Below are positions 3,611 through 61,418 of a DNA stretch of 64,000 nt, piece by piece. This DNA comes from Escherichia phage Murica: the sequence record NC_041871.1, one strand, 5' to 3'. Below the pieces are notes generated by a model. The model was not told where the DNA came from. It worked only from the letters and a program-made list of their open reading frames with translations, and did not search any database. The translations under genes and the position numbers were made by a program. Position 1 is the stretch's first letter, and the number at the start of each line of letters is the position of its first letter.

Positions 3611-4594
3611 ATGATGACAAAGTTAACTCTTGAGCAAATTTTAACACTAAAGCAACAGGGATACACTAATAGACAAATTGCTCGTGAATTTTTAGGCCGT
3701 GAGTCACGTGAGAGCTGGATCCGACTACAGCTTAAACGTGCACAAGATAATATGTCAGAGATTGTAGGAGAAGCAACGGAGCGCTTCCTTGAAGAGCACA
3801 AAGGTGCTAAAGTTTGGGTGTATGATACAGAGACATCCCCAACAAACGGCTGGTTCTTTGGGCACTATAAGACCAACATTCAAACCTGCGGTATTGAAGT
3901 TATGCCCTATATGCTAACTTTCGCAGGTAAGTGGTTAGACAGCCCTAGTGTGGTTGACTGCGCTCTTCCAGATTACAAAATGTGGGATGAAGATATTCAC
4001 AATGATCTCGAATTGATTCAGGATTTGTGGTATTATCTGGATAAATGCGATGTCGCAGTAGCCCACAATTCAGGTTTTGACTGCGGGTGGGCCAACCAAC
4101 GATTTGCATTTCACGGGTTGCCTCCAACAAGCCCTTACAAAGAGGTTGACACCCTTAAAATGATCAAGAAGGCATTCCGTTTGAATGCAAACACTTTGGA
4201 GTATGCATGCAAATACTTCCAACTGGCCCGACAGAAACTGATTGATCACACATTTGAAATGTGGATCAAGTGTGTCCATGGCGATCTTGAGGCATTTAAA
4301 CAGATGCGAGAGTATAATGTTGGTGATATCCTGTCTCTGGAAGGACTGTATTTGCTGGCTCGCCCGTTTGCTAAGCAGCACCCAAACATGTCATTGTACT
4401 ACCAAGACGAGGAGCCAAAGGTTCGTTGCCCACGCTGTGGTGGAGAACACTTTCACGAGGAAGAAGCTTTGGCATATACTCAGCTGAGTGCATTTAAAAC
4501 ATACCGCTGTGAAGGTTGTGGATCTGTTGTTCGTGACCGTAACAACATCCGTACCAGAGAAGAAATGAAAAACACCCTGATTCAGATAATCTAA
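3611..4594 (+). CDS. DEDD-family 3'-5' exonuclease with N-terminal HTH and C-terminal zinc ribbon
   Basis: Exo motifs VYDTETS, VAHNSGFDCGW, YNVGDILSLEGLY; HTH LTLKQQGYTNRQIAREF; CPRCGG...CEGCGS. Confidence 0.6.
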   Translation: MMTKLTLEQILTLKQQGYTNRQIAREFLGRESRESWIRLQLKRAQDNMSEIVGEATERFLEEHKGAKVWVYDTETSPTNGWFFGHYKTNIQTCGIEVMPYMLTFAGKWLDSPSVVDCALPDYKMWDEDIHNDLELIQDLWYYLDKCDVAVAHNSGFDCGWANQRFAFHGLPPTSPYKEVDTLKMIKKAFRLNANTLEYACKYFQLARQKLIDHTFEMWIKCVHGDLEAFKQMREYNVGDILSLEGLYLLARPFAKQHPNMSLYYQDEEPKVRCPRCGGEHFHEEEALAYTQLSAFKTYRCEGCGSVVRDRNNIRTREEMKNTLIQII

Positions 4595-6712: not shown

Positions 6713-7299
6713 TCGGAATTGATGTAGATCTGACACTGGTAGATTCAGGAACAGCATGGTGGGAGTGGTTGGAGCGTTTGTATGGTCCAGCCAGTAAGAC
6801 AGTAGCTAAACCTTCTAATGGGCTAATGTATTACGATCTGTCAAAGTATTGGCCTGATCGTCCCAAAGAAAACATCATAGGACCTTTTGATTTCTGGAGT
6901 GATCCGTTCCTCTACGACTTCCTTAAGCCTGAAGAGGGGGCTATTGAGGTTATGAAAGATTTGGTGGCTCGTGGTCACAAGCTTGCATTTATCTCGGTAT
7001 GCAAGAAAGGTCACCTTGCATCTAAATCAAGGTTCTTAAAGCGTTGGACCAGTGATTTTATGGATCTGGACGATCACACCCAAGGCCACGGCTTCTACGC
7101 CACACATTTCAAAGGGAATGTGGCTGTAGATGTTATAATTGACGACAGGCATGAATACCTGAACCAATTCGCTTCACGACCTGAAGTTATTAAAATCCTA
7201 AAAGATACACCTTATGAGCAATTCGAGGAGTTAAAGGTCAGTGTTGACTATACCGCTAATAGCTGGTATAAAATAGGAAAATTTTTAGAAGGTATTTGA
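6706..7299 (+). CDS. HAD-superfamily phosphatase, putative deoxyribonucleotidase
   Basis: N-terminal DxDxT motif (GIDVDLTLVD); sits in nucleotide-salvage cluster. Confidence 0.5.
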   Translation: MLIGIDVDLTLVDSGTAWWEWLERLYGPASKTVAKPSNGLMYYDLSKYWPDRPKENIIGPFDFWSDPFLYDFLKPEEGAIEVMKDLVARGHKLAFISVCKKGHLASKSRFLKRWTSDFMDLDDHTQGHGFYATHFKGNVAVDVIIDDRHEYLNQFASRPEVIKILKDTPYEQFEELKVSVDYTANSWYKIGKFLEGI

Positions 7300-30175: not shown

Positions 30176-30204
30176 TTGACACATTACCGCTCCCGTGATA
30201 GTAT
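30176..30204 (+). promoter_or_regulatory. sigma70-like promoter with extended -10
   Basis: TTGACA (30176-30181), 17 nt, TGaTAGTAT (-10 at 30199-30204). Confidence 0.55.
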
Positions 30205-30236
30205 CCACACACAGTTTGGAGAATATGGAATACACA

Positions 30237-30326
30237 ATGAGAACATTGTCTGAAGTTTTAGTGGTGATCCTGATGATCATTACTTCCATAGCGGCTGTTG
30301 CCGGAATACTCACGGGTGGAACATGA
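30237..30326 (+). CDS. hydrophobic leader micropeptide (29 aa)
   Basis: MRTLSEVLVVILMIITSIAAVAGILTGGT; stop overlaps next start (ATGA). Confidence 0.3.
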   Translation: MRTLSEVLVVILMIITSIAAVAGILTGGT

Positions 30327-30535
30327 TCAACACACATGCACCTGAAGAGACATCCAAAGGAGTGACCATATGTCCCTTGGCTGAGCCAGTTAGAGAGGAA
30401 AACTTAGATTCTGAGGACTCTTCATCTTCGTCCCAGACAGATCCTGAGGCTGATGACCTGACGTGGGAGGACATCGTAGATATCTGGTTCTCTATTATGC
30501 CTGAGCACGAAGAGTTCAGAGGTGGTAGACTATGA
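30323..30535 (+). CDS. hypothetical highly acidic protein
   Basis: Ser/Asp/Glu-rich (DSEDSSSSSQTDPEADD); GGGTGG SD. Confidence 0.45.
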   Translation: MINTHAPEETSKGVTICPLAEPVREENLDSEDSSSSSQTDPEADDLTWEDIVDIWFSIMPEHEEFRGGRL

Positions 30536-30655
30536 AGCACCGAGCCCACACAGGTTCCTCATGCTAAAGCATGGCCTGAAGAGGCAAACGTGTATAATTC
30601 CTGTGCATTGTGACGTATAAAACCCGTTCACACTCTCATTTCCAGAGGAGATTTT

Positions 30656-30871
30656 ATGAAGATAGAAATATTTGGTGGAGCTGACAACACTCGTGGCCTG
30701 ATTTACCTGGAATTCGATGAATCATACCTGCCAGAGGTGTTAAATATAGACTCTGTTGCTGAGGCTTTGGGAGTAAACCCTAAAGAACTCCACTCTTGTG
30801 CTGAGATCGATGGTTGGGAAGAGACCATGAACATTGATTTCAGTGAAGTAGAGGATGAACCGCTGGACTGA
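30656..30871 (+). CDS. small acidic protein
   Basis: MKIEIFGG...; GAGGAG SD; last + strand gene before the noncoding region. Confidence 0.5.
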   Translation: MKIEIFGGADNTRGLIYLEFDESYLPEVLNIDSVAEALGVNPKELHSCAEIDGWEETMNIDFSEVEDEPLD

Positions 30872-30962
30872 CACACAATTAGCTGCCCGGCTAAAGTGCT
30901 GGAGCACCTACAATACATCTTTCAACTAAATTTCCCACCACCACAATCACTTACCTTCCACA

Positions 30963-31025
30963 CATGACTGTTTGCTTGTTTAGTGAGCAGTCATGCCTTG
31001 ACATTCTTGCCTATCCTGATAAAAT
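30963..31025 (+). promoter_or_regulatory. sigma70-like promoter with upstream inverted repeat, firing into ORF-free region
   Basis: CATGACTG (30963-30970) / CAGTCATG (30988-30995); TTGACA (30998-31003), 16 nt, TAAAAT (31020-31025). Confidence 0.45.
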
Positions 31026-32349
31026 TAAGTTCTTCTCTTTTCTTTTACCGAGTAATTCGGGTTTTCTGTTCTCTTCGGTTTGAAGGGGTATGGAGATACA
31101 CCTGAGTGAACATGGTGAACAACCGAACATTTGGCTATGGCATTAGCATGGCGAAGCGGACGGGTGACGAAAGAGGGGCCGGAGGACACCAGTCACTGCC
31201 ATATGATATATGGGTGATAACCTGAAGAGTCTGAATAAGTGTTTAAGTACCAGTCAGAGGAAAAGGTGAATGGTAGCCGAAGGGGGAGGGGGGTTTCTTG
31301 TATCTTTAATTTGTATATTATGTATACACTCGTAAACCAATCTCATCTGAATCTGTTTACCACACAAAGTAGATAGGGACAAATATCACCTATTAAACTT
31401 GAATTATTTATAGAAAATACCACAACACCACTTAAGTCTTTGATTTTACACACAAATCCTACAGATATTCAACCTCTATATTTAACATATTCATAACATA
31501 TTCCATACTCTACCTGTCTGATCAATTTACCCAACCACATCCTCCATATTTTCCCTGTCTGTACCACCCCTGCCCCGCCGGGAGTCCCGTCATATCTGGC
31601 TTTCCAGCAAATATCACACCCACAAATATCATTGCCTGAAGAGGGTTTCATCCCATAGTACATGCCTTACCTGAAGAGCGCTTCATACACCACGTAAATT
31701 TTTTAATTTACCCCCCCTCCCCGCCGCCGGAGTGGTCGGCTTTTCCCACACAGGCCTGAAGAGTCAGCCAGAAATATCTGAACAGGTCCAGTTATACCAC
31801 GATTTTGACCTGACCGACAGGAGTGCTGCCAGGCGGACGGAATGGGAATACTTCTCATTCTTATAATAATTCTCAAATATCGAGGCAGTGAGGCAAATTA
31901 ATAGGTGAGGCCGTTCACACAGTGGCACAACATTTGCAATCTATTTTGTGAGGGTGAATGAGAATACCTATCATTGTGAGAACTGTTATCATTACGGGCA
32001 ATTTAACATAATACCCATTATGCGCACCACTGGCGATCCATACAGGGATTGATAACATGAGTTACAGTTTACGCATATAACAATCATATTTCTTACTATT
32101 TGTGTGGGATATAGTTAGCAGCCGATAGATTAGATATTGACCTGTGGACTTCCAACCGTCTAGACGTCTAAACGCCCACACAACAAGGATTATACATACA
32201 TTACTGAATGTAAACAGGGCCGCAAAAATGCTACCATACCAGATTGTAAATTTTTCATGCAGCACTTGACAAAGAGGAGAAAAACTTGTCTGACACAATA
32301 TGACATACTGGGCACATTAAACACACTTTAGACTTAATTGACATGCCTG

Positions 32350-32469
32350 ACTGTTTACGCTGTCACTATTCACGCTATTACTATTCACTCCCTTTACTGT
32401 TCACGCTCTTACTGTTTACATGCTTAATGGTTTACATGACCAATAGTTTACATAGCTAACTATTTACAT
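32350..32469. repeat. iteron array: 8 direct 11-bp repeats at 15-16 bp period
   Basis: actgtttacgc, actattcacgc, actattcactc, actgttcacgc, actgtttacat, atggtttacat, atagtttacat, actatttacat starting at about 32350, 32365, 32380, 32396, 32411, 32427, 32443, 32459. Confidence 0.8.
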
Positions 32470-32481
32470 GGAAATGATAAG

Positions 32482-32762
32482 CCATGCCATTCGTTTGCAT
32501 GATAACTATTAGCAAGTTAATAATCTTTCGCTGGCTATGCCAGGTGACCTTTGGTCACCCCTTCGGGTGTTTCTATGACATAATATAAAAGCAGGGCAAC
32601 TATTAGAAGATCTATAGTTGCCTTGCTTGTTATGTCATGATTAACTAAATACAAGGCAACTATGATCTGATTAATAGTTTGCAAACAAACTATCACGGGG
32701 GGTGATGGTTACTGCTTTTATATTATGTCGCGACTCCGTCGCGCCATGCCATTCGTTTGCAT
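32482..32762. repeat. nested direct/inverted repeat complex
   Basis: 19-bp direct repeat CCATGCCATTCGTTTGCAT (32482 and 32744); 18-bp inverted repeat TGACATAATATAAAAGCAG (32576) / CTGCTTTTATATTATGTC (32712); palindromes GGTGACC-ttt-GGTCACC (32543-32559) and GGCAACTAT-N10-ATAGTTGCC (32595-32622). Confidence 0.75.
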
Positions 32763-33388
32763 AGTTGCCTTATTGTTACAGATAAAATAATTGTATTGTT
32801 AATTATTTCTTATCTTTCTCTTAGTCATCTAATGATTCCAGTCAGTATAGTAATGTACAGTAAACATTAGACGACTAAAGATTTATATGCTTATAATAAC
32901 TTACAGTGACAATTTCGGACTGTTTACGAAAAATGTTGACACCTGAGCCGATTTATGTTATGCAGTTTACACGAATAATTATTTTATGCAGGTATTGACT
33001 ATTCCGTTATTCTATGGTCGGAATAAATACTTAGCAGTCTATAGAATGGTGACGCTACGTGAATTCTGGAATTTAGTGGCTATAGTTATACCCGATTTTT
33101 CACGTAGAACACGCTTTTGTGGTTATGTAAGTGTATGACTTATAAAGATTTTTAGTTGTTGACAAGACACTGAAGATATGCATCAGGTTAAATTTTGTGC
33201 AATAGCTGCATTACGTGCAATTTTGGAAGGAAAAACGTGTAAAAATGGCCCTGCTACCACACAATGAAAGATTATGCAATAGCTATTTTATATGTATGTT
33301 TGTACAGTGTGTGGGATTGATGGCTAGTCAATTATTCCACTTGCCAGGTGGGGACGTTTGTGGTAGGAGAAATACAGACAAAAAGAAA

Positions 33389-33406
33389 GGGGCCTTTTAA
33401 AGCCCC
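33389..33406 (-). terminator. terminator closing the - strand arm
   Basis: GGGGC-cttttaaa-GCCCC with U-tract on - strand (complement of AAAAGAAA 33381-33388). Confidence 0.5.
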
Positions 33407-33425
33407 TGATAGTTTAGTTAAGAAA

Positions 33426-33845
33426 TTATAATGATTCGTATATTTCATAGATTCGATTTGCCAGGTCGTTACGGTAGCGGAATTTTTCCTCACGTTTGAT
33501 CATCAGATCTTTAAAGCCATATTCTTTAAGCACTTCATTAACTTTATGGCGGCATACCTTCATATTATCCTGTGCGTCACCAATAAACTTGTTGCTATGG
33601 TGCATGGCTTTAATTTCTTCTTCCAGGACCAGGGCAACTATGCGGACCGGATCAAGCTGATAGGCGGTAACATCAATGCGGCATTGTAAACGGCTTTTTA
33701 CGTCTGCCACCGGATATACTGCAACCTCTTCCCCGTCAACATTGACAATAATTAGTTTACCATCGATTTCGAATCCTTTCGCCGCCGGACCGTGACAAAA
33801 AGCGTTATCAAAGCTATATGCCGGATTATTAGATTTAATGTTCAT
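33426..33845 (-). CDS. hypothetical protein
   Basis: ATG with AAGAGGT SD; 139 codons. Confidence 0.5.
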   Translation of the reverse strand: MNIKSNNPAYSFDNAFCHGPAAKGFEIDGKLIIVNVDGEEVAVYPVADVKSRLQCRIDVTAYQLDPVRIVALVLEEEIKAMHHSNKFIGDAQDNMKVCRHKVNEVLKEYGFKDLMIKREEKFRYRNDLANRIYEIYESL

Positions 33846-33990: not shown

Positions 33991-34254
33991 TTATTTGTTA
34001 CTCATCCAGTTTTCCCAGGCTGCCTGATAATCTGCCTCACTGCGGCGGATCTCTTCTTGCTCTTCAAGTCGGATCTCTTCTTCCAGGTACCCCAAGATAT
34101 CGGCTTTCTTGGTCTGGCGTAACATCCAATCATCTTTTTTACGGGTAAAGATCTTATATGCTTTCTCGCAAACCTCTTTTTTGCTACCTTTTTGGACTTC
34201 AAGAACTTTGTAGGCCATGTACTGAACTAGTTTAAGCTGATCAAGACGTTTCAT
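33991..34254 (-). CDS. hypothetical charged protein
   Basis: SD AAAGAGGT; 87 codons. Confidence 0.5.
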   Translation of the reverse strand: MKRLDQLKLVQYMAYKVLEVQKGSKKEVCEKAYKIFTRKKDDWMLRQTKKADILGYLEEEIRLEEQEEIRRSEADYQAAWENWMSNK

Positions 34255-61076: not shown

Positions 61077-61418
61077 CTACTCAAGGTCTTCAGAGTCAAG
61101 CTCAAAAAGAATCAAACTGTGCATACCTGCAGAGAGATTAACACACCCTGCAACAATAAGGGTTTGATAGTAAGGTTCAGCACCCTCGATGTCTTCGTTA
61201 AAATCCACAACAAGATAGTCACCTTTGTTAAAGGTGTATTTGTCCGATGTAAACGCAAAACCTGCCCAGTCCCCTACTGCAGGATCTTTATCAGTCACCT
61301 TTGTCAGCAGTAGATCTTTTTCACGAGATCTTTTAGTAAAATCGTGAATCACAACATCCTTCTCTTCAGGAGTTGGATTGCCACACACGTAGTTAACTAT
61401 ATTTCTCCACAAACTCAT
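61077..61418 (-). CDS. hypothetical protein
   Basis: 113 codons; stop coupled to helicase gene. Confidence 0.5.
   Translation of the reverse strand: MSLWRNIVNYVCGNPTPEEKDVVIHDFTKRSREKDLLLTKVTDKDPAVGDWAGFAFTSDKYTFNKGDYLVVDFNEDIEGAEPYYQTLIVAGCVNLSAGMHSLILFELDSEDLE

Follow-up and report, generated by a model that had tools for sequence, protein, structure and literature searches.

A one-strand family of nine-base repeats beside the terminal repeat of an rV5-like coliphage

The genome of Escherichia phage Murica (sequence record NC_041871.1) was analyzed here over one stretch of 64,000 nucleotides, referred to below as the window, in which a preliminary description made from the letters alone had pointed out a recurring 9-mer, CCTGAAGAG. 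We found that five non-coding copies of this 9-mer constitute a conserved family of short repeats, confined to one strand, in the unique DNA at the right end, directly ahead of the direct terminal repeat of the genome. The repeats exist, are enriched and conserved, have a defined placement relative to the genome termini, and recur on the same strand and the same side in three genera; protein binding and a role in packaging are what we infer for them. The interpretation that we favor, tentatively and with a probability of about 0.42, is that they are protein-binding DNA sites near the terminus, most likely used in concatemer maturation and packaging. The key to what the repeats are is the adjoining direct terminal repeat, which could not be seen when the 9-mer was first described.

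The 9-mer copies and the adjoining terminal repeat

The 9-mer had been listed at 30575, 31221, 31635, 31670 and 31755, and an exact match was present at all five positions, always on the + strand; a further + strand copy, at 30341, was missing from that list. Altogether, nine copies of CCTGAAGAG occur in the window, compared with a mean of 0.48 in dinucleotide shuffles, of which none (0/100) reached nine. The copies at 6928, 14429 and 30341 (+ strand) lie within listed open reading frames (ORFs), where they are in frame and encode Pro-Glu-Glu, and a copy at 61362 (- strand) also lies within a listed ORF. The five copies from 30575 to 31755 are outside all supported genes and are separated by 646, 414, 35 and 85 bp, the last one (ending at 31763) being 77 bp from the left boundary of the terminal repeat. 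These copies, the gene-free gap and the terminal repeat are given below, with conservation taken from an alignment of the window with 17 related loci (18 sequences; overall identity ~88-97%).

30575-30583, + strand: copy 1 of CCTGAAGAG, an exact match between the ORFs 30323-30535 and 30656-30871
31221-31229, + strand: copy 2 of CCTGAAGAG, in the ultra-conserved block 30925-31295; invariant in 18/18 sequences
31635-31643, + strand: copy 3 of CCTGAAGAG, first of a 35-bp tandem pair (D12); invariant in 18/18 sequences
31670-31678, + strand: copy 4 of CCTGAAGAG, second of the 35-bp tandem pair (D12)
31755-31763, + strand: copy 5 of CCTGAAGAG, in the conserved stretch GGCTTTTCCCACACAGRCCTGAAGAGTCAGCCAGAAATATCTGAA
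30872-33425, no strand assigned: gene-free gap of ~2.5 kb between convergent + and - strand gene blocks, from ORF maps and the annotation of relatives
31832-32290, no strand assigned: direct terminal repeat and genome termini, 459 bp, beginning GGCGGACGG and finishing AAAAACTTGTC

Copy 1 is kept in 16 of the 17 related loci, with L017 reading CCTGAAGGG; copy 4 is kept in 15/18 sequences, the other three (L005, L007 and L018) carrying single-base variants; and copy 5 is missing from 1/18. The in-ORF copy at 30341 is mostly not present in relatives. Copies 3 and 4 had been noticed before as a pair 35 bp apart with extended similarity, and this is borne out, the stretch that they have in common being 20 nt long at 85% identity (family D12). 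All five copies share the exact 9-bp core, and similarity in their flanks reaches just 11-20 nt. Because similarity extends only this far beyond the core, the pattern indicates that the 9-bp core was kept while its flanks drifted. This within-genus footprint alone is weak evidence, because the sequences are so alike overall.

The earlier suggestion that the 9-mer is more frequent than expected by chance holds both genome-wide and across genera. Rather than being equally frequent throughout the complete genome of SophiaRose (the closest relative, 139,943 bp), the copies are clustered locally: 8 + 1 copies were found, against ~0.6 expected per strand, and five of them are inside 1.2 kb. Indeed, CCTGAAGAG is the most locally clustered 9-mer of SophiaRose, with five copies per 1.5 kb, the runner-up having three. 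Outside this cluster, every copy is within coding sequence, which argues against a general promoter element.

The genome ends could be placed from the records of relatives. The first base of the EdH4 record corresponds to 31832 of the window and its last base to 32290; a 459-bp repeat_region annotated in the Gotham record covers the same bases, 31832-32290; and four records terminate at 32290. Thus, the terminal repeat is 31832-32290. For EdH4 and HdK5, a terminal redundancy of 458 bp was reported by Korf et al. 2019 (PMC6563267).

We assign the source of the window to the rV5-like coliphages (genus Vequintavirus), of which ~120 genomes match 30300-32300 at 95-97% identity in a DNA search. According to the ORF maps, + strand genes run from the window start to 30871 and - strand genes from 33426 to the window end. 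The rV5 genome paper depicts the gap between them as a grey box labeled 'non-coding', finds no terminators in it and regards the genome as circularly permuted (PMC3606486). Six ORFs inside 30872-33425 had no PHROG match, and a candidate gene starting at ATG 31112 was rejected, this codon being AGG in most relatives. No transfer RNA or transfer-messenger RNA was found in the window.

Recurrence in other genera and likeness to known terminal arrays

When 30880-32400 was used in a distant DNA search, all matches were to Vequintavirus, and short-word BLAST against the corresponding gap of Klebsiella phage KPP-1 (Mydovirus) gave chance-level matches only. KPP-1 has been assigned T7-type packaging with a 514-bp terminal repeat by PhageTerm (PMC9862379), and this repeat likewise lies in a gap between convergent genes. 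The terminal repeats of PVP-SE1 and GAP31 (Seunavirus) were placed by their similarity to that of KPP-1. Across these genera the end sequences of the terminal repeat are kept, with G[A/G]CGGAC[A/G] on the left and CTTGACA..GAG...TTGT on the right.

We then counted CCT[GA]AAG[AT]G by strand in the 1500 bp to the left of each terminal repeat. The motif occurred 6 times on the + strand and 0 times on the - strand in the window, and 5 and 0 times in PVP-SE1, 4 and 0 times in GAP31, and 3 and 0 times in KPP-1, giving 18 copies on the + strand and none on the - strand over the four genomes. In the 1500 bp counted from the left end of the terminal repeat (the repeat and the next ~1 kb), there were 0 copies on the + strand and 0-1 on the - strand. 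The expectation is ~0.02 per strand (4 variants x 1500 / 4^9, assuming simple composition). A neighbor-preserving swap shuffle mixed poorly, which inflated its means; even so, every observed count exceeded every shuffle. We regard this recurrence on the same strand and the same side, in DNA that cannot be aligned, as the strongest evidence for function. Both KPP-1 and GAP31 carry CCTGAAG[T/A]GTCAGCC left of their own terminal repeats, resembling the context of copy 5, and PVP-SE1, which carries the variant CCTAAAGAG, has three copies in 60 bp, a denser arrangement than that of the window.

A similar arrangement is found in T7, whose arrays we take to be SRL and SRR, flanking the 160-bp terminal repetition, and which were reportedly described by Dunn and Studier in 1983; our open-access literature search found no paper on T7 SRL/SRR arrays. 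At the T7 ends, the first 340 bp contain 11 copies of CCTAAAG and the last 270 bp contain five, with all 16 copies on one strand and 0 on the other. These copies are both inside and beside the terminal repetition, and one of them reads CCTAAAGAG, a single base off CCTGAAGAG and identical to the PVP-SE1 variant. In both phages, then, a one-strand motif of 7-9 bp stands in non-coding DNA adjoining a short direct terminal repeat; the motifs are near-identical, CCTAAAG(AG) in T7 and CCTGAAGAG here; and the last right-end copy is 78 bp from the repeat in T7 and 77 bp here. The two systems also differ. The T7 arrays are dense, with a spacing of 13-30 bp, whereas the window has five sparse copies over 1.2 kb, and T7 has copies on both sides of its repeat plus three inside it, whereas those in the window are on the left only and none is inside. 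The right side of the window repeat bears instead another array, of eight ACTGTTTAC-like units of 15-16 bp.

In SP6, a same-strand array of a short motif also stands at the terminal repeat, starting directly after it, but this array is dense and its motif, (C)CTTAGT, is different; the motif sequence is therefore lineage-specific within such elements. On these analogies, same-strand short repeats next to a short terminal repeat are an already known kind of element, of which the window would hold a sparse, one-sided variant. Short repeats are recognized by terminases elsewhere, for example the cosB R-sites of lambda, the pac hexamers of P1 and the pacL/pacR boxes of SPP1. Like these, the window copies are multiple short repeats adjoining a terminase cut site; unlike them, they reach out to 1.26 kb, whereas the known sites have a demonstrated binding protein and are within ~200 bp of the cut.

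A possible role in packaging, and the alternatives

In replicating concatemers, the region that carries the copies would be the left flank of the junction at which genomes separate. We propose that the repeats may serve as double-stranded DNA recognition sites for a phage maturation or packaging protein, the likeliest candidate being the terminase component that recognizes DNA. Binding to several copies that all point the same way could load or orient the complex, which would cut at the repeat boundary, and packaging would then start from this end. The preliminary description had offered, as one option, that the repeats mark protein sites; this is the best reading of them, and one that we infer from the invariant core with diverged flanks, the strand and side bias, and the T7 parallel. 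A packaging role in particular is favored on four grounds: the repeats keep to one strand and to one side of the cut site, T7 offers a parallel, KPP-1 has been assigned T7-type packaging, and in T3 and T7 the DNA that determines packaging specificity is within 5% of the termini according to work cited in PMC3276506.

Several points weigh against this proposal. The copies are sparse and irregular and extend 1.26 kb from the boundary, and two of them are in or beside transcribed early-gene spacers. The loops of intergenic terminator-like hairpins (GGGAGCC-TGAAGA-GGCTCCTTT) contain some of the copies in KPP-1, GAP31 and PVP-SE1, an arrangement that would suit a role in RNA as well. We know of no established function for the T7 arrays, so the analogy provides a location and not an explanation. 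No small terminase subunit was recognized beside the large subunit gene, the neighbors of which are spanins, and no binding protein was identified for the 9-mer. Moreover, headful packaging has been inferred from PhageTerm for one Vequintavirus (PMC13211470).

Copy 2 lies within a block, 30925-31295, that is almost 100% identical in the 18 Vequintavirus sequences and exceeds its flanking genes in this respect. From left to right, the block consists of an 8-bp inverted repeat (CATGACTG...CAGTCATG), a promoter, and ~260 nt ending in GGGGGAGGGGGG plus TTTCTT. The promoter hexamers are retained in L008, the most divergent locus, with an altered spacer. The block had no Rfam or PHROG match. Near-invariant and promoter-driven over ~260 nt, with G5AG6 and a U-tract, it is regarded here as a candidate for a primer RNA or an early non-coding RNA. 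The elements of this block and the C-run nearer the terminus are as follows.

30998-31025: sigma-70-type promoter, TTGACA-16-TGaTAAAAT
31282-31293, + strand: G-run GGGGGAGGGGGG with TTTCTT directly after it, closing the ultra-conserved block on its 3' side; almost invariant in the 18 sequences
31711-31722, + strand: C-run (C7TC4), ~120 bp left of the terminal repeat

We consider it unlikely, though far from negligible, that the 9-mer acts instead in rightward transcripts, at the 3' end of the early operon, as a target for a ribonuclease, for a factor in termination or antitermination, or for a protein that binds RNA. The copies all have the sense of the rightward gene block, and copy 2 is downstream of the strongly conserved promoter at 30998-31025, but the motif does not occur in the many remaining intergenic spacers of this operon, and the T7 SRL array is upstream of the early promoters A1-A3, so that host RNA polymerase does not transcribe SRL rightward. 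Copy 1 and several KPP-1 and GAP31 copies are between + strand genes, some of them in GC-rich hairpin loops followed by T-runs; the structural context is nevertheless inconsistent, a given copy being in a hairpin loop, half in a stem or unpaired, and this variation favors recognition of sequence over a common fold. C is abundant and G scarce over 31300-31760 (GC skew -0.43 to -0.54), as at Rho loading sites. No Rfam family matches the repeats: whether the whole window was searched at the gathering threshold or 30200-33600 at E <= 10, the only matches were at chance level, and none was on the repeats. A hammerhead-like CUGANGA match within the motif found no support. A class of phage promoters was also considered and rejected, there being no consistent -10 element 3' of the copies and no copy upstream of any other gene. 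In contrast to T7, the window phage is a 137-kb myovirus with no RNA polymerase of its own, as stated for the related genus Certrevirus (PMC7344957).

A replication origin has, in our estimate, a low probability. Here the 9-mers would be initiator boxes around an AT-rich unwinding stretch at 31300-31500 (28% GC), and the RNA from the promoter at 30998, ending in GGGGGAGGGGGG and a U-tract, would be an R-loop primer, comparable with ColE1 RNA II, the mitochondrial CSB II element, and the promoter-plus-AT-rich origins of T7 and T4. The order of elements is consistent with this, running from the promoter through the near-invariant transcribed block of ~260 nt and the invariant G-run plus TTTCTT to the 28% GC stretch, which has one copy to its left and three to its right. 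Other iteron-like arrays are also present in the gap. DnaA boxes have the same format of a repeated 9-bp box, and the window resembles DnaA-box and iteron origins in having such boxes on either side of an AT-rich stretch; it differs from them in that its boxes all point one way, are widely and irregularly spaced, and have no known initiator, no initiator gene having been identified. In DNA searches the G-run block was detected only in Vequintavirus; in PVP-SE1, GAP31 and KPP-1, the long G/C runs found on the left side of the repeat were all C-runs, yet the 9-mer is present in these genera. GC skew only tracks the direction of transcription, as the rV5 paper likewise found (PMC3606486).

That the 9-mers have no function, being remnants of local duplication or of decayed coding sequence (CCT-GAA-GAG encodes Pro-Glu-Glu), is already disfavored and seems very improbable to us. 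Copies 3 and 4 do form a 35-bp tandem duplication (D12), and three + strand ORFs of the window read the 9-mer in frame as Pro-Glu-Glu, but the core is exact in five copies with diverged flanks, the copies are kept genus-wide, the same strand and side recur in three genera with unalignable flanks, and the gap ORFs lack PHROG matches.

The preliminary description had also reported a 12-bp G-run inverted repeat; the exact complement exists (31283-31293 with 31712-31722, pair I24) but is 11 bp long, not 12. In close relatives the C-run reads CCCCTCCCC or CCCCTGCCCC and is at times displaced by insertions. It is hardly credible that the two runs pair over ~420 nt in RNA, as had been proposed, or form a DNA cruciform, since the 11-bp complement is specific to the window, shrinks to 6-10 bp at its longest in the 17 related loci with no compensating change or other covariation, and goes unused in the minimum-energy fold of 31200-31800, a fold whose stability does not exceed that of shuffles (z = 0.01), and since the local partner of the G-run in the minimum-energy fold of 31030-31310 is the pyrimidine tract 31030-31046 (z = -1.85). 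The G-run and the C-run appear to be parts of separate elements. Each of the four genomes, which represent three genera, has a C-run (C4-7 T(T) C4-5) on the left side of the terminal repeat at a distance of 91-145 bp (window 31711-31722; L144 1957; L145 1905; L020 2872), and by inspection it can form a short hairpin with the bases that follow, with the C-run as its 5' arm.

Other elements of the region and implications of the repeats

Further repeats are present to the right of the terminal repeat. Eight tandem units of 15-16 bp (ACTGTTTAC / ACTATTCAC plus 6-7 nt) occupy 32350-32470, beginning 60 bp from the terminal repeat; this iteron-like array, which occupies the place of the SRL array in T7, is the least conserved part of the aligned 30500-32500 among relatives. 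Beyond it, an exact 20-bp direct repeat, GCCATGCCATTCGTTTGCAT, is found at 32481-32500 and 32743-32762, a perfect 18-bp inverted repeat with its arms 117 nt apart at 32577-32594 and 32712-32729, and several palindromic copies of GGCAACTAT / ATAGTTGCC at 32589-32778, so that the repeats in 32481-32778 together make a dense set. Toward the right of the gap, a palindromic element of ~40 bp, GCTGGCTATGCCAGGTGACCTTTGGTCACCCCTTCGGGTG, occupies 32527-32570. Copy 1 of L008, a metagenomic relative, is interrupted by a palindromic insert of ~46 bp (~3873-3930), a reverse-complement copy of the GCTGGCTATGCCAGGTGACCTTTGGTCACCCCTTCGGGTG element with AAGAG on either side, and this palindrome may be mobile, as a small element of its own.

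Just left of the terminal repeat, at 31811-31822, relatives carry variable inserts of ~35-50 bp with the direct repeat GACCTACAGGAG at the insert flanks, making this position an indel hotspot 10-20 bp ahead of the genome end. A second short motif, AAATATCA[C/T] (CAAATATCA), occurs at 31380, 31607 and 31622 and, in KPP-1, left of the terminal repeat (L020 2914-2942 and 3058-3070); this motif is among the most clustered 9-mers of SophiaRose, with three copies per 1.5 kb. The palindrome ATGCTAAAGCAT, with a CTAAAG core, is at 30561-30572, just ahead of copy 1, and a form of it, CAATGCTAAAGCATTG, is found right of the terminal repeat in KPP-1 and PVP-SE1 (L020 3610-3621; L144 ~2640).

In one orientation or the other, the G-run at 31283 and the C-runs fit the KOPS pattern of Escherichia coli, GGGNAGGG, and a neighboring 87-aa ORF at 33991-34254 (- strand) is labeled 'DNA translocase FtsK' in some relatives. 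This lead found no support: the ORF has no Pfam FtsK domain, or any other Pfam domain, its PHROG is of unknown function, and the annotation looks unfounded. A literature search for the 9-mer returned unrelated primers only, and a pattern scan of viral contigs with CCTGAAGNGTCAGCC was abandoned as too unspecific, with at least 120 unrelated matches. The name 'Campylobacter phage' is carried by nineteen records that show 90-96% identity to these coliphages, and in the two that were opened, A142 and A12a, the entry is marked UNVERIFIED; these records are probably mislabeled or co-isolated Vequintavirus coliphages.

Returning to the proposed role of the 9-mers in genome maturation, the grey 'non-coding' box of rV5, left unexplained in PMC3606486, contains a terminal repeat and a repeat family and so likely has such a role. 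Separately from any idea about the 9-mer, the ~260-nt block beside the genome end might yield a novel early RNA of the phage or the primer for an R-loop. It would be a long shot that CCTRAAG is a recognition element common to T7-group podoviruses and rV5-group myoviruses, groups of enterobacterial phages that are unrelated but both have short terminal repeats, and that it is read by a common host factor or by a conserved DNA-recognition module of terminase; if true, the T7 SRL/SRR arrays, now 40 years old, would gain a testable function. With a near-identical motif at the T7 ends, the rV5-like phages offer an independent system in which such repeats can be tested. These phages have a use in typing and are candidates for therapy, and their true termini and cis-acting sites matter for engineering, rebooting and annotation.

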